Part shown: one piece after another, positions 1 through 9,100 of the stretch
Position numbering within the stretch: the first letter of the stretch is position 1
Layout of the letters: every line of letters starts with the position of its first letter
Source: a virus
Lineage: Duplodnaviria > Heunggongvirae > Uroviricota > Caudoviricetes
Virus record (IMG/VR): IMGVR_UViG_2684622620_000015
Coordinates: 1-9,100 of that record
Strand: one strand, 5' to 3'
Length of the DNA: 9,100 nt
Notes under the pieces: model-generated
Databases searched by the model: none
What the model saw: only the letters and a program-made list of their open reading frames with translations
Told to the model about the DNA's origin: nothing
Made by a program: the position numbers and the translations under genes

Positions 1-405
1 ATGGATCAGGTCGTTGTTTTTCAAAAGATGTTTGAGCAAGTGAGAAAAGAGCAAAACTTCTCCTGGTTTTATTCAGAATTAAAACATCACCGTATTGCAC
101 ATTACATTTATTATCTGGCTACGGATAACATCAGAATTATTACTCACGATGACACGGTTTTGTTATTAAGAGGAACCAGGAACCTGTTAAAAATTAGTAC
201 GACCAAGAACCCTGCTAAAATAAAAGAGGCCGCATTGCTTCATATTTGCGGAAAATCTACATTTCGGGAATACTGTTCAACACTAGCAGGCGCGGGCGTT
301 TTCCGGTGGGTTACTGATGTTAATCATAACAAACGCAGTTACTACGCCATTGATAATACGCTTTTATATATTGAAGATGTAGAAAATAATAAACCATTAA
401 TCTAG
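1..405 (+). CDS. ycgX: YcgX-like small protein of unknown function (DUF1398-type), 134 aa, apparently complete
   Basis: ORF starts with ATG at window position 1 and ends with TAG at 403-405. Length and N-terminus (MDQVVVFQKMFEQVRK...) match my recollection of E. coli YcgX, which lies next to iraM in K-12. AT-rich, host side of the prophage junction. Recognition is from memory only. Confidence 0.65.
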   Translation: MDQVVVFQKMFEQVRKEQNFSWFYSELKHHRIAHYIYYLATDNIRIITHDDTVLLLRGTRNLLKISTTKNPAKIKEAALLHICGKSTFREYCSTLAGAGVFRWVTDVNHNKRSYYAIDNTLLYIEDVENNKPLI

Positions 406-615
406 CTAAAGTTGGATGCTTAAGAAATGCTTCATAATTCAGTAAGGCATTAGCATAATGGGAATAAAAGTACAGAGACTATCCCTATGGATGATAAATA
501 CTGTCCTTTTATTGCTACCCATAAATAATCACCATGCCAATACTATCAAATTGATATTTGAAATGTGATCACTTGACTTTCTATACGTTATTTTATAACG
601 GTTAATATATTTATA

Positions 616-664
616 AAAACAACGGGTGTGCCATACGCCCGTTTCAATACTTAACGCACATGTG
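616..664. repeat. About 48-bp hairpin-containing element, copy 1 (degenerate copy of the icd terminator region)
   Basis: Roughly 85% identical by eye, in direct orientation, to 1476-1521. Contains the palindrome AACGGGTG-tgccata-CGCCCGTT (621-643), which has a G.U wobble as + strand RNA and a C.A mismatch as - strand RNA. A T-run follows on the minus strand (rc of 611-620 is GTTTTTATAA). Confidence 0.6.
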
Positions 665-1100
665 TTTTGGTTTAGTCATCATCCAGTTATATGTATTTTA
701 GCCAGGAACAGGTTAAACCTTTCCTATATAACTCAAAAATTGAAACCTTATTCTCATGTCATGCTTATATTCATTATTATCGTTATATAAAAAGGCAACC
801 ATAATGTTTAGCAAATTGGCACAAAGTAGCATAAAGGCTATGTTTTAATTACAGGATGTTCAGTCATTTGAATGTATAACATTATAGCTAAACAAATCTA
901 AAACGAAGTGAATAATTTATTGTTTTCACTAAATCTCATTTTGTTTAACATCCATTGAGATTCCTTGCTTTAAATTTTGTTTTATATAAGCAATCGTTTT
1001 AATTAATTTATTTTTTGAAGGGGTAATATACTCATATGCAAAATAAAGAAATGAACATCCAAATGAACTATATTAAATACCGTGGGATAAGACATAACAA

Positions 1101-1424
1101 ATGAAGTGGATAGTAATTGACACGATAATTCAACCTTCATGCGGCATATCTTTTTCAGCCATATGGGGTAATATGAAAATGATCATCTGGTATCAATCTA
1201 CTATATTTCTCCCTCCTGGCAGTATATTTACACCGGTTAAATCTGGAATTATCCTTAAAGATAAAGAATATCCTATTACTATTTATAACATCGCACCATT
1301 CAACAAGGATTTATGGAGTCTACTCAAAAGCAGTCAAGAGTGTCCTCCAGGAGAAAGCAAAATAACAAATAAATGTTTGCATAATAGTTGCATTATAAAA
1401 ATATGCCCATATGGGCTCAAGTAA
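1101..1424 (+). CDS. iraM: Anti-adaptor protein IraM (RssB inhibitor that stabilises RpoS), 107 aa
   Basis: 107-aa [35 protein letters not shown]...ICPYGLK matches recalled K-12 IraM (YcgW/ElbA) in length and sequence with a few substitutions. Very AT-rich gene in an AT-rich intergenic context, in the expected position between ycgX and the icd 3' fragment. Confidence 0.8.
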
Positions 1425-1470
1425 AGGGTTTTATATAAATATGCTCGATATGCTATTAATAATACCTACA

Positions 1471-1503
1471 TAAATAAAACAACGGGCGTGTTATACGCCC
1501 GTT
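1471..1503 (-). terminator. Rho-independent terminator of icd (hairpin plus U-tract on the minus strand)
   Basis: Perfect 8-bp stem AACGGGCG (1481-1488) / CGCCCGTT (1496-1503) with a 7-nt loop. On the minus strand it is followed by GTTTTATTTA (rc of 1471-1480). It sits 24 bp downstream of the icd-fragment stop codon at 1527-1529. The + strand side lacks a U-tract, so it is a weak terminator at best for iraM. Confidence 0.75.
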
Positions 1504-1521
1504 GCAATATTAAACACATGT
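1476..1521. repeat. About 48-bp hairpin-containing element, copy 2 (includes the functional icd terminator)
   Basis: Direct repeat of 616-664; see that feature. The two copies bracket the roughly 810-bp AT-rich segment that carries iraM. Confidence 0.6.
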
Positions 1522-1526
1522 AGTGA

Positions 1527-1691
1527 TTACATGTTCTTGATGATCGCATCACCAAATTCTGAACATTTCAGCAGTTTAGCGCCTTCCATCAGACGCTCGA
1601 AGTCATAGGTTACGGTCTTCGCATTGATTGCGCCTTCCATACCTTTAACAATCAGGTCTGCGGCTTCAGTCCAGCCCATATGGCGCAGCAT
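1527..1691 (-). pseudogene. icdC: 3' fragment of isocitrate dehydrogenase gene (icdC), displaced by prophage integration; last 54 codons plus stop
   Basis: Reverse-complement translation of 1530-1691 gives [54 protein letters not shown] followed by TAA (rc of 1527-1529). I recognise this as the Icd C-terminus. An in-frame stop lies immediately upstream, so no Icd N-terminal part is present and this is a fragment. Confidence 0.85.
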
Positions 1692-1700
1692 TAGTTAGAT
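1686..1700. other. Approximate host/prophage junction (attR core region) at the end of icd homology
   Basis: Icd-like coding homology on the minus strand stops at about 1688-1692 (an in-frame TAA precedes it at 1695-1697). Sequence to the right is non-icd, AT-rich prophage DNA. The exact core cannot be defined without the attL copy. Confidence 0.5.
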
Positions 1701-1924
1701 GATTAAATCGTAACTATTTGACATAGCAACATAATTTTACTAATTTGCATATAACTCATTAGCTCTTAGCATTTCCATAACTCATTGATTATCAACATGT
1801 GTTTTTGAGTTTTGATAACCATTTTTAGCATAAAAATAGCAGTTAACATTTGCAGAAGTTAAGATCAGAGAAAATTTTTACCCTGTAAGGTATTACGTCT
1901 TAAATGTGACTTTAATAAACAATT

Positions 1925-2758
1925 TTATTTCTGTAATCGGTTTATATTAACGTAAAGCATCTCGATTAGCTCTTTTGCATTTTTACTATAGTGCAATTCT
2001 CTATGGCAATTCGGACAAAGGGCAACACAGTTATCTGTTGTATCAGCACCACCTGAAGACAGGGGAATTACATGATGCACTTCCAAGTATGGGCTTCCAT
2101 CATTTAAATAAAACGGAGCATTTTTACCACAGTTTTCACATATACCTTTACTTTGCTGTAAAATCCAAGCTTTTACCATCGGGTCTCGGAGATAAACTTT
2201 TTGTAGTCTTTCTACCTCAACTGGTTTTCTGGAGCCCTCGGGTTGACTCAACGTTTTCTTAATTAATTTACTAACCCTCATATTCAGAAGCGATTCATCA
2301 TCTGTAGGCTGTGAAAGCTCTGATAGATCTCCACGTATTATAGACGCCCAAAAACTGTCACTATAAATACCTGGAACATTTATCAATATTCGTTTCGTTC
2401 TATTGCCGGAAGGAATTTCCTTTCTCCCCGTACGACTAAAATAAGCCTGATAACCACACATCTTCAAGCGTATATCGCGGGGGCTATTACCAATCAAAGT
2501 AAAATATTCACCAGGATGGATTTTTCTTTCATCCAAAGAATGCATATGTTTTCTGACTGATGATGACGCCAGATATACTACGATTTGGGATACACCAGAA
2601 TCAACCAACCGTTCAATGATATAATCAAGAGCGATATTGTAATCTTTGTTTCTGTCACCCGGCCCCCACGACTCAAGGATTAGACCATAAACGCCATCCT
2701 CTTCACCTATCGAACACTCAGCTTTTAGTTCAATTCCATTATTATCAAAAACATGCAT
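1925..2758 (-). CDS. mcrA: McrA, HNH-family type IV (modified-cytosine-dependent) restriction endonuclease, 277 aa
   Basis: 277-aa ORF with a C-terminal HNH/zinc-finger nuclease motif visible in the translation (CENCGKNAPF...LEVHHVIPLSSGGADTTDNCVALCPNCHRELH). Length and N-terminus (MHVFDNNGIELKAE...) match recalled K-12 McrA. Located between pinE and the att junction as in e14. Confidence 0.9.
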   Translation of the reverse strand: MHVFDNNGIELKAECSIGEEDGVYGLILESWGPGDRNKDYNIALDYIIERLVDSGVSQIVVYLASSSVRKHMHSLDERKIHPGEYFTLIGNSPRDIRLKMCGYQAYFSRTGRKEIPSGNRTKRILINVPGIYSDSFWASIIRGDLSELSQPTDDESLLNMRVSKLIKKTLSQPEGSRKPVEVERLQKVYLRDPMVKAWILQQSKGICENCGKNAPFYLNDGSPYLEVHHVIPLSSGGADTTDNCVALCPNCHRELHYSKNAKELIEMLYVNINRLQK

Positions 2759-2859
2759 AGCATTAATCTTTAATCAATTTTTTACGACAATACTACTTTT
2801 ATTGATAAAATTGCAACAAGTTGCTGTTGTTTTATTTTGTACACAAAGTGTCTTTAACT

Positions 2860-3414
2860 TTATTTATCCCCTGCAGGAAACCTCTTATACAAAGTTGACA
2901 CACCAACATCATAGATAATCGCCACCTTCTGGCGAGGAATGCCTGATGCAATTAATCGCCCGGCCTGCGCCCATTGTTCTAGTGTAAGTTTGGGACGACG
3001 TCCCCCAATTCGTCCCTGTGCGCGAGCAGCTTCCAGTCCAGCTTTTGTTCGTTCAACAATCAGTTCTCGTTCCATTTCAGCTAGGGCACCCATCACATGA
3101 AAGAAAAAACGCCCCATCGGTGTGCTGGTATCAATAGCATCCGTCAGGCTGCGAAAATTAACGCCACGTTCGCGCAACTCCTCAACCAGAATGACCAGAT
3201 GCCGCATACTACGCCCCAGCCGATCCAGCTTCCAGACAACCAGAGTGTCACCTGCCGATAATGTCCTGAGCAGTTTTTTCAGTCCAGGCCTTTCGGACTT
3301 TGTACCGCTTATCTTGTCTTCAAAAATCAGCTCGCATCCTGCACAGTTCAGCGCATTACGTTGTAGATCTGTGTTCTGGTCATTTGTTGACACACGTACA
3401 TAGCCAATAAGCAT
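2860..3414 (-). CDS. pinE: Serine-recombinase DNA invertase (Pin; Hin/Gin/Cin family), 184 aa
   Basis: Translation MLIGYVRVSTNDQNTDLQRNAL...GRLIASGIPRQKVAIIYDVGVSTLYKRFPAGDK has the catalytic-Ser N-terminal motif and a C-terminal HTH typical of DNA invertases. I place the start at the ATG at 3414-3412, which is preceded by AGGGGG 7 nt upstream. The 196-aa ORF in the track adds 12 codons with no RBS and runs into the recombination-site region. Confidence 0.9.
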   Translation of the reverse strand: MLIGYVRVSTNDQNTDLQRNALNCAGCELIFEDKISGTKSERPGLKKLLRTLSAGDTLVVWKLDRLGRSMRHLVILVEELRERGVNFRSLTDAIDTSTPMGRFFFHVMGALAEMERELIVERTKAGLEAARAQGRIGGRRPKLTLEQWAQAGRLIASGIPRQKVAIIYDVGVSTLYKRFPAGDK

Positions 3415-3468
3415 GTTAAATCCCCCTGGTAAAAGCAGGAATGATGCCATTTGCTTGTTATTTCTTCA

Positions 3469-3494
3469 TTTTCATAAACATTGGTTTGGGAGAA
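3469..3494. other. Left inversion crossover site (pix/gix/hix-like 26-bp site)
   Basis: 'TTTTCATAAACATTGGTTTGGGAGAA' resembles the recalled gix/hix pattern (TTATCnAAAACC-nn-GGTTTnnnGATAA). It is 21/26 identical to the reverse complement of 5353-5378, with the inner 12-bp half-site plus central dinucleotide identical. It lies about 55 bp upstream of the pinE start. Confidence 0.8.
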
Positions 3495-3989
3495 GGTTCA
3501 GCATTACCTGTTGGTGCACCTGTTCCGTGGCCTTCAGAGACACCTCCAACAGGCTGGCTGAAATGCAACGGAGCAGCTTTTTCTGCTGAAGAATACCCGG
3601 AACTGGCAAAGGCTTACCCGACAAATAAATTGCCTGATTTACGTGGTGAGTTTATTCGTGGCTGGGATGATTCTAGAGGGATTGATACGGGGCGTTCATT
3701 GCTAAGTGGTCAGGCTGCAACATTTATTCGTACAGCTTTGCAGGATTATTACGGTTACGATCTGAATACTAATGTCAAAGTAGGTATCGCTTTTGCTACT
3801 GCTGATTCTGTTATAACTGTTGGAAACCCAGCTAATCCTAAAGCAGGAAATAATAGCGTTTATGTTCCTGCATCAGCAGATAACTCCATAACGGGTACTC
3901 AAAGGACAGCGGAGGATAATTTTACCGGGGCATGGATATCAATGCGCCCTCGTAACCTTTCATTTAATTACATCGTGAGGGCTGCATAA
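3483..3989 (+). CDS. stfE: Alternative tail-fibre C-terminal receptor-binding segment (StfE variable part); silent in this orientation
   Basis: The in-frame ORF (track 3441-3989) carries a tail-collar-type motif (LPVGAPVPWPSETPPTGWLKCNGAAFSAEEYPELAKAY...LPDLRGEFIRGW). Meaningful coding begins at the crossover site; the first 14 codons (MMPFACYFFIFINI) are an ORF-finder extension across the pin-proximal region. It would be fused to the constant N-terminus only after inversion. Confidence 0.75.
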   Translation, partial: GLGEGSALPVGAPVPWPSETPPTGWLKCNGAAFSAEEYPELAKAYPTNKLPDLRGEFIRGWDDSRGIDTGRSLLSGQAATFIRTALQDYYGYDLNTNVKVGIAFATADSVITVGNPANPKAGNNSVYVPASADNSITGTQRTAEDNFTGAWISMRPRNLSFNYIVRAA

Positions 3990-4591
3990 TGGATAATGCC
4001 GTATTAAATAGCGAGTTTATTGCCACGAAGGCGGGGGATATTACTGTCTATAATTATAATGGTGAAACACGAGAATATATTTCCACATCAACTGAATATC
4101 TTGCTGTTGGTGTCGGTATTCCGGCATGTTCCTGTTTAGATGCACCAGGAACATATAAAGCTGGTTATGCCATCTGCCGCTCTGCGGATTTAAACTCATG
4201 GGAATATGTGCCAGACCATCGCGGAGAAATCGTCTATAACACCGAAACGGGAGACGCCAAAGAAATCACAACTCCGGGTGATTACCCCGAAAATACAACC
4301 ACTATCGCCCCATTAACGCCATACGATAAATGGGATGGTGAGAAATGGGTGACCGATACTGAGGCACAGCATCACGCCGCAGTAGACGCGGCAGAAGCAC
4401 AGCGTCAGTCACTGATTGATACTGCAATGGCTTCCATTAGTCTGATTCAACTGAAATTACAGGCTGGGCGGAAGCTGATGCAGGCAGAGACCTCCCGACT
4501 TAACACTGTGCTGGATTACATTGACGCGGTGACGGCAACAGATACCAGCACCGCGCCGGATGTCATCTGGCCTGAACTGCCGGAGGAGTAG
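3989..4591 (+). CDS. tfaE: Tail-fibre assembly protein (Tfa/U family), 200 aa
   Basis: The start ATG overlaps the stfE-v stop (TAATG). The C-terminus ...DTSTAPDVIWPELPEE is the conserved Tfa C-terminal motif. Length matches recalled TfaE (200 aa). Confidence 0.8.
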   Translation: MDNAVLNSEFIATKAGDITVYNYNGETREYISTSTEYLAVGVGIPACSCLDAPGTYKAGYAICRSADLNSWEYVPDHRGEIVYNTETGDAKEITTPGDYPENTTTIAPLTPYDKWDGEKWVTDTEAQHHAAVDAAEAQRQSLIDTAMASISLIQLKLQAGRKLMQAETSRLNTVLDYIDAVTATDTSTAPDVIWPELPEE

Positions 4592-5006
4592 GCCATTCAA
4601 TATCTGGCGCACTGGAAGTATCGACCAGCTCCAGTGCGTCCAGATAATCCAGCCACAAATTATATTGCGCCAGTTCCTCACCTTTCAGGCGACCAATCGC
4701 CGCTTTACCAGGCCATTGCTTACTGTTCATGTTAGAGTTGGCCTGTTCAATAAGAATCTGCCTCTTGCGTTCTGCTGCTGCTACCTGCTCATCATGAGTT
4801 AGTGCTGGTAGTTCACCCCATTCCGGATAACCATCTTTTCCAGCGATGCGGACCTTCCCAGTTGGCGGTTCCTTTGTATATTCTGTAAATATATCTTCGT
4901 CACATTCAACACCATCAGTAGGCCAGCAATTTCCAGAAATATAATCTTCTTTCATTGATGTTGGATAGAAAGCGTTATTTATTGCACTGTACACATATTT
5001 TTTCAT
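4563..5006 (-). CDS. tfaP: Tail-fibre assembly protein (Tfa/U family) partnered with StfP
   Basis: The start ATG (5006-5004) is 1 nt after the stfP stop and is preceded by AGGT. The C-terminus ...VDTSSAPDIEWPTPPAVQAR carries the Tfa motif. The start could be the internal Met at codon 18; I recall K-12 TfaP as somewhat shorter than this 147-aa ORF. Confidence 0.75.
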   Translation of the reverse strand: MKKYVYSAINNAFYPTSMKEDYISGNCWPTDGVECDEDIFTEYTKEPPTGKVRIAGKDGYPEWGELPALTHDEQVAAAERKRQILIEQANSNMNSKQWPGKAAIGRLKGEELAQYNLWLDYLDALELVDTSSAPDIEWPTPPAVQAR

Positions 5007-5007
5007 T

Positions 5008-5655
5008 TTATTTACCTATAGCTATCCATCGACAATAAGTTGTATTGCTACCTGATGGCTGGGAACCCATTAAGCTAAAACCAAGACCGGTACTAACGGG
5101 TGTAGCAGCAAAAGAAGGAATTGAATTTACTGCAGATTCCGCATTATCATACGACACAACAATTTGCACGGTTGAGTAGTTGGTAAATGCAATGGGGAAA
5201 TTTATAAAAGTGGGAGATCCAATCGCTCCTGCCACTGAAACACCACGTTGAAAGATAGTTCCATCAGGGTAACGACACCAGCCATTTCCACTTGTAAAGC
5301 TAGACATGTCAGGAATTTGATTGGTGCCGGTCCCTACATTTCTTTTAGCCGCTTCTCCCAAACCAAGGTTTTCGAGAGCTATTTTCACCGTGCCATCCGA
5401 TTTGATATCGCCAAACGGATTCTTGCGGCTTAACAGCAGCGCGCGAAGTGCGGTAAGCAACTGATCGTGCCGCCCCTTCTCCAGGCTGGCACCGGATGCC
5501 TCCACAACGCTGCAAAGCTCCTCCTGCAACATGTCAAAGTAGTCATCATCCAGATCGGTGGCAGGCGTGCCAGTCTGGGGGTTACCACGGGTAAAACCGT
5601 TTTTACCCGCGCCGAACTTATCCTTCTGCGCGGTTTTCGTGTCTATACGATGCAT
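5008..5655 (-). CDS. stfP: Side tail-fibre protein: constant N-terminal part (outside the invertible segment) fused in frame to the StfP variable C-terminal domain
   Basis: 215-aa ORF whose ATG (5655-5653) is preceded by GGAG at 6 nt and lies 3 nt after the ymfQ stop. The crossover site sits in codons ...ENLGLGE..., about 96 codons in. The N-terminus [21 protein letters not shown]... matches recalled StfP. Confidence 0.8.
5353..5378. other. Right inversion crossover site (pix/gix/hix-like 26-bp site), inside stfP
   Basis: 'TTCTCCCAAACCAAGGTTTTCGAGAG' is the inverted partner of 3469-3494. It lies within the stfP reading frame at the constant/variable boundary. Confidence 0.8.
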
Positions 5656-5658
5656 GGA

Positions 5659-6243
5659 TTACTCCGGATATTTAAAAATTACGCAGGTATGCGACGGGCA
5701 GAGTTTGTTAAGAACACACTCGACAACGGTGTCCCCCCAGATACGCAGTGCGGAATCACAGGGATCGCCACATGTCATCCAGGTGGTGTTGGCGGCGGCT
5801 GGCATGTTGACCTGCCAGTAATACCGCCATTCCGGCGCATTCACAGCGTCAGTACAGGCCGATGAGCAGGTGAACGTGCTTTTGTCGTATCGCGTGATGG
5901 TGGCATCTGGTCTGCCCAGGGCAGCAAGCTGTGCAAGATAAAAATCCTCGTTGATGCCGCCCGCCAGGTTAACCTTCGCATCCAGCCGTTGCTGACGCTG
6001 GCGAAGGGTCTGTGTCCCTGCGGGAATACATTCATCCGGCAGGCCGCACAGACGCTCCCAGCGATTTATCAGTTCGGTGGTGGTGCGCGGATCCAGCTCC
6101 CGCATCAGGGCATCCGCACGCTGATGAACACGGGTTAATGACGGTGCTGCACCGGCAATCGCCGGATCGCTGACTGACCACGCCGGACCGGGCGGCAACA
6201 GTGCCGACAACAGACGGATATAATCATCGTTTGTCACGTCCAT
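5659..6243 (-). CDS. ymfQ: Phage baseplate/tail protein YmfQ (Mu gp48-like, DUF2313-type), 194 aa
   Basis: 194-aa ORF immediately upstream of stfP; its start overlaps the stop of the J-like gene by 10 nt. Length and sequence match recalled e14 YmfQ. Position corresponds to Mu gene R (gp48) in the P-Q-V-W-R-S-U order. Confidence 0.75.
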
Positions 6244-7292
6244 GAAATCGTCCCCAGAACTGCCAGCTCATTTTTTGCAATGGAGATATTGTCCGCCGGT
6301 GCAAGCAACTGATGGCTATATTCCCCGTTCGCACCGGAAATCGCTTCACTGATACGTGACACCTTCAGTTCTCCCTGCGGATAACCATCACGCAGCAGGA
6401 ACGAACGCAACTCCGCGGTAATGGCAGCCCGTATTTCTGGTGTGTCCGGCGTCACGCGGATATGAAAATCCACCGTATGTGCCACCGGCCTGAATACATA
6501 CAAATCAGAGCCTGCCACCGGGGCCAGTGGCCCGATATGTTGTCTTGCTGCCGTTTCCGTTGATTCTTCCGGAATGGGATTAATCAGGTCACTGCCGGCA
6601 ATCATCACACCGACAGTTCCCGTTCCCATCCAGTGACGGTATGTCCATGCGCGGGTAATGCCGGGCACTTCTTTAGCCCAGACGACATAGTCCCCGTCAG
6701 CCCCGCCCTGCGGCGTCCAGTAATACCGCTCAATGACGCGGGCGCGCCACGTTTCCAGATCTTCTGTATCAAATCCGCCTGTCAGGGTGTCAGTCACACC
6801 GGAAGACGGCAGACCATTCACCGGCGTGACCAGGATTAATGCCGTACCATCGTCAGCGTTACCGACCGCGCCTGCAGTTGAGCAGGCGATCGGCACGCGC
6901 AGGACACCACCGGAGCTGGTTGCATCGGCAGTTGCCGTGTACTGAACCAGGTCATCGCGCTGAATAACACTCCCGGCAGTCACCTTCAGGCCATCGCTGA
7001 CACCTTCCCAGCGCATATACCCGCTGGCAGCAGTGGCCCCCTTGCGCGGACACCGTTTCATCGCAGCATGTCGCGCCAGCCAGGACTCATCGCACAGGTC
7101 AGGCAGCATGTTCATTGCCAGATAATCGATGTAACCGTAAACCGTATGCAGCGCCGCCGCATACACCTTTGCCCGCACGTCTTCATCCATGCGCCGGAGC
7201 GTGTCGCTGACGTCCAGCCTGGCGAATAAATCGTTACGGAGCATACTGATATTTTCTGCCAGCGTCGGGCGCTGAAATTCACTGTCCGCCAT
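6234..7292 (-). CDS. jayE: Baseplate J-like protein (Mu gp47 / P2 gpJ family), 352 aa
   Basis: Size and position between the gp46-like gene and ymfQ; start overlaps the upstream gene by 14 nt, indicating translational coupling. Family assignment is by synteny and general resemblance, not a computed alignment. The symbol is given because this is the position of jayE in e14. Confidence 0.6.
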
Positions 7293-7707
7293 GCGTTATC
7301 GCACTCCACAGATCATCAAAAGAAATCATTACCGGTCCGTCACGACGCCAGAGAGTGATACTGTTACCCAGTTCATTAATCCCGGTGCGGCGGATATCCA
7401 GATCAATACGGGACACCACGCCGTCATCAATCATCCATTGCAGGCATTCGCGGATATACCCCCTTACCGTCTGCACCAGCTGATTGGTCAGTTTGCTGCG
7501 CTGAAGCAGCCACAGTCGGGAGCCGTAACGGTCATTCTGTACCGCAGGCCAGGTATCCCCCCACCATCCCATCGGGACGTCGGCGTTGTCATCAGGCTCC
7601 GCCCGTCGCCAGGTAAACAGGGAAATCACCACGGCGCGGGTCAGCGGATCCAGCGGTGCGCTGGCGCAGGTGCGTTTACCGTTCACCGTCAGCCACAGTT
7701 CCATCAT
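7279..7707 (-). CDS. Mu gp46-like baseplate protein (P2 gpW / T4 gp25-like family), 142 aa
   Basis: 142-aa ORF whose start codon overlaps the stop of the upstream ORF (ATGA). The small size and its position immediately 5' of the J-like gene are typical of gp46/gpW. Confidence 0.6.
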   Translation of the reverse strand: MMELWLTVNGKRTCASAPLDPLTRAVVISLFTWRRAEPDDNADVPMGWWGDTWPAVQNDRYGSRLWLLQRSKLTNQLVQTVRGYIRECLQWMIDDGVVSRIDLDIRRTGINELGNSITLWRRDGPVMISFDDLWSAITHGGQ

Positions 7708-8252
7708 GCCTCCATCGCTTTATCAGGTTTGTCGGTGTTACTGCCCTGACCGTTCTCTCTGTGACGATGCCCGTTATAGGCAAGCCGCATCGCTGACATG
7801 GTAGTGCCGCTGGAGTCGCACAGGTCTTTCACCTGTCCTGTCACTTCCAGGTCCATTTCAAAACGTGCTTTAGGTGAATTGCGAAACGTGATCGTTTTAC
7901 CTGCACCGTCCACCACGATCCCCTCCCGGGTCAGCGTCACGGACTGCCCCTGATCGTCATAGACAGCCACCTCACCCGTCTGCAGCCCTTTCAGGCGGTA
8001 GCGCCGGTCCGACACCGTAACAACCACCGCATGAGAACGGTCGCCATCCGGAAACAACACCACCGCTTCCGCACCGCTGTTTGCCCTTGCGGTAAAACCG
8101 TAGGGTTCAAGATGTTCAACCCCGGCTTTGGGTTCACCGGCAATCAGGGACACATCCACGGTCTGACATTTCGTGGCGGCACTGATGCTTTTCACCACGG
8201 CCCGCCCAATCAGGCCGAGGAGTTGTCGCTGCATGGCTTCAATCGCCCTCAT
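7704..8252 (-). CDS. Mu gp45-like baseplate assembly/spike protein (gpV family), 182 aa
   Basis: 182-aa ORF whose ATG (8252-8250) overlaps the TGA of the upstream gene by 1 nt (TGATG on the coding strand). Position and size match gpV/gp45 in a Mu-like baseplate operon. Confidence 0.6.
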   Translation of the reverse strand: MRAIEAMQRQLLGLIGRAVVKSISAATKCQTVDVSLIAGEPKAGVEHLEPYGFTARANSGAEAVVLFPDGDRSHAVVVTVSDRRYRLKGLQTGEVAVYDDQGQSVTLTREGIVVDGAGKTITFRNSPKARFEMDLEVTGQVKDLCDSSGTTMSAMRLAYNGHRHRENGQGSNTDKPDKAMEA

Positions 8253-9100
8253 CAGAACGGGTCCTCCTGTACTCTGGCTTTTTTCTTTTTCCGCGCGCCG
8301 GGATCTTCGGGTTCAGGCAGATAAGCATCAGGCGGGCCGACACGGATTTCCGTCAGGGTGCCGTTCTGGTCCTGAGTAAACGTGACTTCCGAAACAAGCA
8401 GTTCGGTATTGTCGAAACCACAGACCGGATCGAAGACAATCACCCGCTGGTTGGGCTGCCACAGCGTACCGTTACCCTGTCGCCAGCCCTGCACCACATA
8501 AGTGGTTTCATCCGTCCGCGCCGCCCGTTGTCGGGCTTCAAAGTCAGCACGCGCAATACAGCCTGCCCCCGTGGCCTGCCCTGTCTGCCTGATATACATC
8601 GGACGGTAACGGGCAATAAATGCGTCCTCTGTGCGGGCCCGCAGCGCAGTTGTGGTGGCCTCACCGAAATCATCGTCGTTTCCGGCACGCTGCCCCGCCA
8701 CCTGGTAAACAGAAAACCGCTCCCGGATACTCTTCTCCGTATCGCAGGAAAGGATGTTTTCCCCAAGTACCAGCGCGGTATGTGCCCGCGTTGAGCCAAT
8801 ACCGCCAATCACCAGCCTGCCGTGCGGGTCGTCGTAAGCCAGTGCCTGCTGCTGACCGAGTATTTTGTTGATTACCTCAATCACCGTTTCACCGTGATCA
8901 GGCTGGACATCAGGAATAACACCCGACGGCGCACCGCTGTTCACCACCTCAATGCCGAAAGGCGCAGCAAGCGCCTGCGCAATCTGTACCAGCGATCGTC
9001 CGTTAAACTGTGTCGGTTCGGCTGCACAGTCAATCAGGTCAGCGGTCAGACTGCGTCCGGCAATACCGGTGCTGACCGAACGGGCATCGTAACGAACGGG
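8252..9100 (-). CDS. Mu gp44 / P2 gpD-like baseplate hub protein, partial (5' end lies beyond the window)
   Basis: The track ORF begins at a GTG at 8947, but I translated the same frame from 8948 to about 9067 and found no stop, so the gene very likely extends past 9100. The C-terminus ends ...GARKKKKARVQEDPF. Assignment rests on synteny upstream of the gpV-like gene. Confidence 0.55.
   Translation of the reverse strand, partial: PVRYDARSVSTGIAGRSLTADLIDCAAEPTQFNGRSLVQIAQALAAPFGIEVVNSGAPSGVIPDVQPDHGETVIEVINKILGQQQALAYDDPHGRLVIGGIGSTRAHTALVLGENILSCDTEKSIRERFSVYQVAGQRAGNDDDFGEATTTALRARTEDAFIARYRPMYIRQTGQATGAGCIARADFEARQRAARTDETTYVVQGWRQGNGTLWQPNQRVIVFDPVCGFDNTELLVSEVTFTQDQNGTLTEIRVGPPDAYLPEPEDPGARKKKKARVQEDPF

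Follow-up and report, generated by a model that had tools for sequence, protein, structure and literature searches.

A P-segment inversion switch between two tail-fibre tips in an e14-type prophage of Escherichia coli

The window analysed in this study is a stretch of 9,100 bp (positions 1 to 9,100 of IMG/VR record IMGVR_UViG_2684622620_000015), in which a baseplate operon is followed by a tail-fibre gene, a second fibre cassette lying in the opposite direction, and the gene of a serine recombinase. Two fibre tips, each with its own assembly chaperone, lie between a pair of short inverted sites. The features are, in order of position:

2860–3414, minus strand: pin (pinE-type), serine DNA invertase of 184 aa (Pfam Resolvase, E 8e-52, and HTH_7)
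3329–3396, minus strand: putative Fis-dependent recombinational enhancer inside pin (pin nt 19–86), proposed by homology only
3441–3482, plus strand: 14-codon leader (MMPFACYFFIFINI), which puts the "parked" cassette on the pin side in a predicted ORF and is in frame with either cassette
3469–3494: pin-proximal recombination site of pixR type, TTTTCATAAACA TT GGTTTGGGAGAA (25/26 to pixR)
3483–3989, plus strand: StfE-type variable cassette (collar domain and tip), now on the pin side (Pfam Collar, E 6e-16)
3989–4591, plus strand: tfaE, tail-fibre assembly chaperone of the StfE cassette (Pfam Caudo_TAP, E 4e-31; PHROG 105, tail fiber assembly)
4563–5006, minus strand: tfaP, tail-fibre assembly chaperone of the StfP tip (Pfam Caudo_TAP, E 2e-31)
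5008–5364, minus strand: variable part of StfP, a gp53-like C-terminal tip, now joined to the constant N-terminus (Pfam Gp53-like_C, E 2e-9)
5353–5378: distal recombination site, pixL, TTCTCCCAAACC AA GGTTTTCGAGAG (26/26 to published pixL)
5365–5655, minus strand: constant N-terminal part of the fibre gene, 96 codons and 1 nt, followed by the core dinucleotide (98% identical to K-12)
5659–9100, minus strand: Mu-type baseplate operon with homologues of gp48, gp47, gp46, gp45 and gp44 (Pfam Phage_Mu_Gp48, Baseplate_J, GP46 and Phage_Mu_Gp45)

Comparison of the open reading frames with their annotated counterparts places these genes in an e14-type prophage, at its end nearest to icd, next to mcrA and the icdC remnant. 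The source strain is identical to contig LECG01000080.1 of GCA_001309675.1. The locus order ycgX-iraM-icdC-mcrA-pinE-stf/tfa-ymfQ is that of the annotated e14 of strain K-12 and of related genomes, and one contig (L021), 100% identical to the window, has the same neighbours. Moreover, the gene order within the window is the same as that of Mu genes 44–48, S, U, U', S' and gin, and the same layout is found in phages Mu and P7 and in the complete phage SKA5. We regard the region, with near certainty, as the inversion switch of the P segment in a prophage of e14 type that is integrated at icd in E. coli; the best explanation also makes this prophage lambdoid, with a Mu/SfV-like tail. The baseplate genes are intact here, unlike those of K-12 e14, in which jayE is a pseudogene and the gp44–46 homologues are absent; the operon, located upstream, probably provides the transcription that enters the fibre gene. 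That e14 has an invertible P segment has reportedly been known since 1985.

In comparisons with PHROG, the constant part of the fibre matches tail-fibre families over their N-terminal region, and it joins in frame to either of the two C-terminal parts. The locus differs from K-12 e14 in the StfP tip, which shares 40% identity with that of K-12, in TfaP (51% identical, the C-terminus being conserved and the N-terminal half divergent), and in the StfE cassette, where the central ~80 aa are replaced; TfaE is 88% identical to its K-12 counterpart. Sequence matches of the StfE cassette in the PDB are the tip of T4 gp37 (2xgf), T4 gp12 (1ocy, 1pdi) and a short tail fibre (9cuy). The start of tfaE coincides with the last base of the stop codon of the cassette (3989), so that after inversion tfaE would come directly behind the fused gene. 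A megablast search of 5,426 complete E. coli genomes gave no match to the StfP tip; the best match of the tip in the phage collection has 73.5% amino-acid identity, and its best match among species-representative genomes reaches 60% over part of the tip. The exact tip protein is nevertheless present in E. coli draft assemblies (58 contigs). These tip alleles, which are uncommon fibre-tip variants, are the only local features of note.

The gene next to the cassettes is identified by its sequence as a Gin/Cin/Pin-type serine invertase of the Din group. Its product matches the crystal structure of Gin (3uj3) with an E value of 1e-93 and with the catalytic Ser9 aligned, the alignment to Gin structures 3uj3 and 4m6f extending over residues 1–181, and it is 96% identical to K-12 PinE, 82% to Cin and 78% to Gin. 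In Hin, residues K47, R48, K51, Q151, R154 and L155 contact Fis and the enhancer, and they are conserved in invertases and not in resolvases (PMC3798978); Pin keeps them as K46, K47, R50 and the Q-A-G-R-L motif. Furthermore, nt 19–86 of pin align with the annotated enhancer of P7 cin, also at nt 19–86, and G-N13-C cores at pin nt 22–36 and 71–85 are common to gin. Identity of pin, gin and cin at third codon positions is 6/18 in this interval and 27/108 in the rest of the gene (p = 0.32), no significant difference in a comparison of three sequences that has little power. Hin acts through a Fis/enhancer-dependent invertasome (PMC3798978), and the alignments suggest that Pin may depend on Fis and on the putative enhancer in the same manner.

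The original prediction placed two 26-bp sites in inverted orientation, with an identical inner half-site and a TT core, on either side of the cassettes, and this was confirmed at 3469–3494 and 5353–5378. Read as its reverse complement the right site is CTCTCGAAAACC TT GGTTTGGGAGAA, which agrees with the left site at 21/26 positions, with no difference in the core TT or in GGTTTGGGAGAA, the inner half-site. Both sites have a 12-2-12 architecture, the core being TT in the left site and AA in the right. A repeat search returned as the strongest inverted repeat of the region a 20-nt pair that is 95% complementary (3476–3495 / 5352–5371); there are exactly two copies of the 15-mer TTGGTTTGGGAGAAG, one per strand, against a chance expectation of 0.01, and none of 200 shuffles contained two or more matches to it. 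The two 26-mers were also expected to align to known invertase sites. With the reference sequences of PMC3241671 (Table 3), the right site is pixL at all 26 positions and the left site matches pixR at 25/26, while hix, gix and cix give 16–20/26; the single difference from K-12 pixR is at the base adjoining the core (AAACA for AAACG). The centre of the left site is 67 bp upstream of the start of pin, the distance from gixR to gin in Mu being 66 bp. Extra Min-like sites were sought with AAACCNNGGTTT at up to two mismatches, which gave 6 matches where 4.4 were expected; the good ones were only the two known sites, and further sites of this kind were rejected.

Over the left site the plus-strand frame reads AAC ATT GGT TTG GGA GAA (NIGLGE), and over the right site the minus-strand frame reads AAC CTT GGT TTG GGA GAA (NLGLGE). 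The core dinucleotide thus occupies codon positions 2–3 in each frame, which bears out the proposal that both sites interrupt a coding frame at the same phase. Inversion in silico of 3483–5364, or of 3481–5366, which gives the same sequence, yields a 265-aa open frame with neither frameshift nor stop, composed of the 96-codon constant part and the collar-type cassette and followed by tfaE; the predicted fusion of a constant N-terminus of about 96 aa to the collar domain and tfaE is therefore found in the inverted sequence. This common phase is not peculiar to the window: K-12 e14, Mu S and P7 S conserve it too.

The alternative state that had been predicted at the nucleotide level exists in public isolates. 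Proteins identical to the 265-aa fusion and to its 132-aa reciprocal product have been deposited at NCBI from E. coli isolates, and three contigs (L022, L023 and L025) are collinear with the inverted window, with zero mismatches in the segment or at the junctions. In these inverted isolates the junctions fall exactly at the sites, and the same AAACA variant of the left site is present. The isolates compared are identical over window positions 1–3495 and over the whole segment and differ only in its orientation, the two orientations coming from different isolates. Among the 5,426 complete E. coli genomes, 854 have a pin/collar junction of the type seen in the window and 514 a fused constant/collar junction. 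Thus the segment inverts at its sites, both orientations of the same alleles being found in sequenced isolates.

These observations bear on whether the repeats are a matter of chance, or serve only as substrates for general homologous recombination unrelated to the neighbouring recombinase. The perfect repeat is indeed short (15–20 bp), and this is the only point in favour of such an origin, which the shuffles, the matches to curated Pin sites, the 12-2-12 architecture and codon phase common to Mu and P7, and the position of the junctions effectively refute, leaving it hardly any probability.

Site-specific inversion by Pin could also be a thing of the past, the sites and pin having persisted in a frozen relic in which inversion no longer proceeds at a meaningful rate, so that the orientations of the relatives would record old events. 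The origin of the two orientations in different isolates, the substitution beside the core of the left site, and the frequent defectiveness of e14-type elements, as in the K-12 annotation, would fit such a relic. We consider it very improbable, however: Pin has its full length and retains the catalytic residues and those that contact Fis, the otherwise identical isolates that differ only in orientation suggest recent inversion, and K-12, whose sites are near-identical, switches readily (PMC4272514, PMC12529663). In MG1655-derived clonal cultures both orientations were shown in 2014 to coexist, with inversion joining stfE to ycfK (PMC4272514), and PinE and PinQ were both found to invert the segment (PMC12529663). 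K-12 is the only strain in which orientation is documented to vary within a culture (PMC4272514, PMC12529663), and by analogy with that strain Pin-dependent inversion and mixed populations within cultures would be expected here.

Under active inversion, Pin, which belongs with Gin, Hin and Cin to the Din group of small serine recombinases, would bind the two 26-bp pix sites as dimers, cut both at the central TT/AA dinucleotide and exchange strands, which would invert the 1,882 bp between the sites. The crossover would fall at codon positions 2–3 of the Leu codon in the N-L-G-L-G-E motif. Because the inner half-sites are identical, both orientations would be in frame and the sites would be regenerated unchanged, and the switch would thus be fully reversible. 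In the present orientation the tail operon would read from the constant part into the gp53-like tip (StfP, 215 aa) and then TfaP; in the inverted orientation it would read into the collar-type tip (265 aa) and then TfaE. Such a swap of tips may affect receptor specificity.

The present state had been described as StfP-ON and StfE-OFF, a description that stands provided that OFF is taken as relative, since a 14-codon leader gives the pin-side cassette an ORF of its own. After inversion, this leader and the StfP tip form the 132-aa product, which is annotated in E. coli isolates. An AGGA motif upstream of the leader is 0–3 nt from two ATG codons, a poor spacing for a ribosome-binding site. A promoter scan of positions 2700–5800 gave 8 promoter-like and 5 terminator-like signals, where 4.9 and 3.1 were expected; none of them fits expression of either cassette, and none is a promoter for the leader ORF. 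An Rfam scan of the window found no family.

A phage-defence role of the K-12 segment was reported in 2025, the K-12 reciprocal product StfE2 being active when made from a plasmid (PMC12529663). By extension, the segment here might be a device that serves the host, in which the 132-aa ORF that lies on the pin side after inversion, corresponding to K-12 StfE2, keeps other phages from adsorbing, while variation of the prophage's own host range is secondary or lost. Inversion in K-12 is reported to give StfE2, which blocks adsorption of T2, and PinQ and PinR to act on the K-12 segment in trans (PMC12529663); in addition, the in-frame leader ORF and the exact 132-aa product annotated in isolates would suit such a device, as would the loci with a truncated pin that are still found in both orientations. 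On the other hand, the K-12 phenotype is not transferable to a gp53-like tip that is only 40% identical, the AGGA spacing is poor and the scan gave the leader ORF no promoter, the intact baseplate genes, unlike those of K-12, make a genuine phage function plausible, and the K-12 evidence consists of plasmid over-production and docking models. We hold this host-serving role to be rather unlikely; it concerns the biological role of the switch and not its mechanism, and is compatible with Pin-mediated inversion as the main explanation. A bolder proposal, in our view quite unlikely, is that the pin-side position is not silent, that the switch, the leader being in frame with either cassette, toggles four proteins in place of two (215/182 aa against 265/132 aa), and that the 132-aa product with its rare tip (40% to K-12) could be a host-protective adsorption blocker with a specificity unlike that reported for K-12 StfE2, and could be driven in trans by other Pin paralogues.

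The switch conforms to known systems in most respects. The K-12 e14 P segment (stfP/ycfK, tfaP, tfaE, stfE) lies at the same chromosomal site by icdC and mcrA, in the same gene order, and has its crossover at codon 97 in the same phase, its length being 1,813 bp against 1,882 bp here by the same counting. In the Mu G segment, gp44–48, S, U, U', S' and the invertase gene are collinear with the window, the invertase is likewise transcribed away from the segment, the crossover core is at codon positions 2–3 of Leu in N-L-G-L, and each alternative tip is paired with its own chaperone. Mu differs in its constant part (169 codons against 96), in its core dinucleotide (TC/GA against TT/AA), in its gix sites, which match those here at 17–18/26, and in its tips, which are unrelated apart from weak N-terminal similarity. 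The C segment of P1/P7 with Cin has the same TT/AA core and crossover codon phase, a constant and a variable fibre part with a chaperone, and an enhancer inside the invertase gene (putative here); unlike here, cin points towards the segment, cixL is at the 3' end of cin, the constant part has 453 codons and the segment is about 4 kb long. The Min system of p15B also has Din-type sites with the same inner consensus (18–21/26) and varies fibre C-termini, but with six sites and several overlapping segments in place of two sites. The original prediction spoke of a Gin/Hin/Cin/Pin host-range switch, of which the kinship with Gin, Cin and Pin holds. Hin belongs to the same recombinase group, and hixL matches the sites here at 20/26, but Hin is no host-range switch: it flips a promoter for flagellin genes in the Salmonella H segment, fuses no coding segments and is unconnected with tail fibres. 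The proper analogues are therefore the Mu G, P1/P7 C and e14 P segments.

The description given in the original prediction is correct, including its statement that the system is known and not new (PMC4272514, PMC12529663). As a discovery the locus carries little weight, the P segment being long known; it is a worked example in which a prediction of the alternative state, made at the nucleotide level, is matched exactly by public isolates. Differences in orientation explain apparent differences in "gene content" between annotations, such as fragments annotated as "phage tail protein" and fusion proteins. The uncommon tip alleles could be of interest to those who catalogue receptor-binding modules, and could help to test the defence effect of StfE2 beyond K-12.

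Between the pin recombinase gene and a Mu-type baseplate operon, the window carries a 1.9-kb block with two genes on the plus strand and two on the minus strand, in the following layout.

Genes and domains of the window
1-405, plus strand, ycgX (open reading frame)
1101-1424, plus strand, iraM (open reading frame)
1527-1691, minus strand, icdC, a 54-codon icd remnant from the icd C-terminus (open reading frame)
1925-2758, minus strand, mcrA (open reading frame)
2860-3414, minus strand, pin recombinase, 184 aa (Pfam Resolvase and HTH_7)
3483-3989, plus strand, StfE collar cassette (Pfam Collar)
3989-4591, plus strand, tfaE (Pfam Caudo_TAP)
4563-5006, minus strand, tfaP (Pfam Caudo_TAP)
5008-5655, minus strand, StfP, 215 aa (Pfam Gp53-like_C)
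5659-9100, minus strand, Mu-type baseplate operon (Pfam Phage_Mu_Gp48, Baseplate_J, GP46 and Phage_Mu_Gp45)

The gene order is that of the annotated K-12 'cryptic prophage e14' (ymfQ, ycfK (StfP), tfaP, tfaE, stfE (pseudogene), pinE, mcrA, icdC, iraM), and the E. coli contig LECG01000080.1 (L021; GCA_001309675.1) matches window positions 63-9100 at 100% identity, thus the window comes from E. coli. Unlike K-12 e14, in which only a jayE pseudogene adjoins beeE, the window element has intact homologues of Mu gp44, gp45, gp46 and gp47, and is therefore a less decayed prophage than the reference. icdC marks the e14 attachment-site end, and chromosomal genes start to its left. An element of 46-48 nt that contains a hairpin, reading AAAACAACGGG(T/C)GTG..ATACGCCCGTT.CAATA, is present twice, with about 85% identity between the copies, at 616-663, between ycgX and iraM, and at 1476-1521, just past the icd remnant; the pair probably represents related terminator or REP-like elements. 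The genes tfaE and tfaP converge and share 29 bp at their 3' ends (4563-4591), and an 18-nt inverted repeat (4510-4527 / 4636-4653, 83% complementary) is explained by homologous C-terminal LDYIDA/LDYLDA motifs on opposite strands.

Direct comparison bears out the two inverted 26-bp sites of the original prediction: the left one (3469-3494) reads TTTTCATAAACA TT GGTTTGGGAGAA and the right one (5353-5378, minus strand) CTCTCGAAAACC TT GGTTTGGGAGAA, with identical inner half and core and agreement at 21/26 positions. The pair is the top inverted repeat of the region (20 nt, 95% complementarity), and its common 15-mer has exactly two occurrences, one on each strand, against 0.01 expected by chance; none of 200 shuffles contained two matches. 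When aligned with the curated invertase sites in Table 3 of PMC3241671, as had been proposed, the right site matches pixL at 26/26 positions and the left site pixR at 25/26, the sole mismatch being the base adjoining the core, while both score lower with hixL, cixL and cixR (19-20/26), gix (17-18/26) and hixR (16/26). The window contains only these two sites, and hence the switch has two states. The interrupted frames read NIGLGE and NLGLGE as originally stated, and the core dinucleotide occupies codon positions 2-3 in both. Since the core falls at positions 2-3 of a Leu codon within an N/Y-L-G-L motif in the window, in K-12 e14 and in the S genes of Mu (codon 170) and P7 (codon 454), this phase is a conserved property of the class and no local peculiarity.

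Pin aligns with Gin crystal structures over residues 1-181 (E 1e-93), catalytic serine included, and shares 78% identity with Gin and 82% with Cin. Pin also has counterparts (K46, K47, R50 and Q-A-G-R-L) of the residues that are conserved in Fis/enhancer-dependent invertases alone (Hin K47, R48, K51, Q151, R154 and L155; PMC3798978). Nucleotides 19-86 of pin align with the annotated enhancer of P7 cin, which points to a putative enhancer inside pin; synonymous-site conservation in this interval versus the rest of pin, gin and cin (three sequences) showed no significant excess (p = 0.32).

Inversion of 3483-5364 in silico yields, with no frameshift or stop, the predicted fusion: an open frame of 265 aa in which the collar cassette follows the constant N-terminus of 96 codons. 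The start of tfaE is the last base of the cassette stop codon, so that tfaE comes directly behind the fused gene, also as anticipated. Because the inner half-sites are equal, inverting 3481-5366 gives an identical sequence; recombination thus restores both sites exactly, which makes the switch reversible.

The most informative step is the look-up of this alternative state in public isolates. The exact 265-aa protein is deposited from E. coli in NCBI under the name 'phage tail protein' (e.g. EJU9822756.1), as is the 132-aa reciprocal product composed of the pin-side leader and the StfP tip (EJU9822759.1), and the two accessions flank the exact TfaP (EJU9822758.1). Contigs with this TfaP at the icd-side location fall into two orientation groups, that of the window (L021, L024) and the opposite one (L022, L023, L025). 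Each of the latter three aligns with the inverted window as a single ungapped block, with all mismatches in the baseplate genes and none in the segment or either junction. Of 5,426 complete E. coli genomes, 854 have the pin|collar junction of the window and 514 the constant|collar fusion junction; FHI_NMBU_10 and JNEC-KY176, for example, have identical Tfa proteins in opposite orientations.

In the loci L019 (5956-6489) and L020, the same module adjoins an autotransporter gene, and pin is truncated to a frame of 177 aa without the HTH domain, which is lost after ...ARAQG. The two nevertheless differ in orientation, which may reflect either the action of other Pin paralogues in trans or an inversion older than the decay of pin. 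In the partial genome of phage vB_EcoM-689R6, whose Pin is 100% identical to that of the window, pin-mcrA runs straight into a truncated constant|collar fusion without the remainder of the invertible segment, likely an assembly collapse across the inverting repeat and not a real structure.

Transcription would enter from the upstream tail operon, and would then cover the constant part and whichever cassette and chaperone faces it; no internal promoter stood out in a promoter scan. The state of the window had been called StfE-OFF. For this pin-side cassette 'OFF' holds only in a relative sense: it lies in an open reading frame whose 14-codon leader (3441-3482) is in frame with either cassette. 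For this leader the promoter scan found no promoter, and the only Shine-Dalgarno-like sequence is AGGA, 0-3 nt from the start codons. The description as a Gin/Hin/Cin/Pin host-range switch is right as to the known system and wrong for Hin, which acts in flagellar phase variation by promoter flip.

Mu has a collinear layout (gp44-48, S, U, U', S', gin), with the invertase-proximal site centred, as in the window, 66-67 bp upstream of where the invertase gene starts. The complete phage genome SKA5 carries the same invertase-fibre-baseplate module, and SfI, SfII, SfIV and SfV have the baseplate genes and constant fibre part in common with the window. In E. coli TUM11352 the pin/fibre/baseplate module, 95-97% identical, lies in a prophage adjoining ssrA (tmRNA) and not icd, and the module therefore moves between prophages with different integration sites.

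The observation is thus confirmed and its interpretation supported, and the system, as originally stated, is already known. Sequencing and PCR showed the two orientations side by side in clonal cultures derived from MG1655, with inversion joining stfE to ycfK (PMC4272514, citing Plasterk & van de Putte 1985 and Mehta et al. 2004). Inversion reaches about 30% in wild-type BW25113, PinE, PinQ and PinR each invert the segment, the inverted state is found in 33% of 562 database genomes, and the chimeras are named StfP2 and StfE2, the latter reported to block T2 adsorption (PMC12529663). StfP2 is the fusion predicted here and StfE2 the leader with the gp53-like tip. Together, these two studies make the system, both products and their natural heterogeneity known.

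Both tips of the window are, in turn, uncommon alleles. Identity to K-12 is high for McrA (99%), the constant N-terminus (98%), YmfQ (97%), Pin (96%) and TfaE (88%), and falls to 51% for TfaP, with its C-terminal half conserved, and 40% for the StfP tip; the StfE cassette retains the collar and last ~14 residues around a replaced centre of ~80 residues. Megablast against the 5,426 complete E. coli genomes returned no near-identical DNA for the StfP tip and TfaP N-terminus (~4870-5294), the best phage-collection match to the tip has 73.5% amino acid identity (phage HeidiAbel_Bas97), and the exact protein occurs on 58 draft contigs. In comparison with K-12 and with the nearest complete genomes, 4870-5294 and 3670-3945 are replaced between flanks 88-98% identical, and the blocks track module boundaries, namely the StfP tip with the chaperone N-terminus and the insert at the centre of the collar cassette. 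As these tip blocks differ from K-12, it would be unsafe to take the K-12 defence phenotype as given for the window. The replaced blocks look as though receptor-binding modules had been exchanged as cassettes within the invertible segment, and replacement at module boundaries is in keeping with the way receptor-binding proteins commonly swap cassettes.
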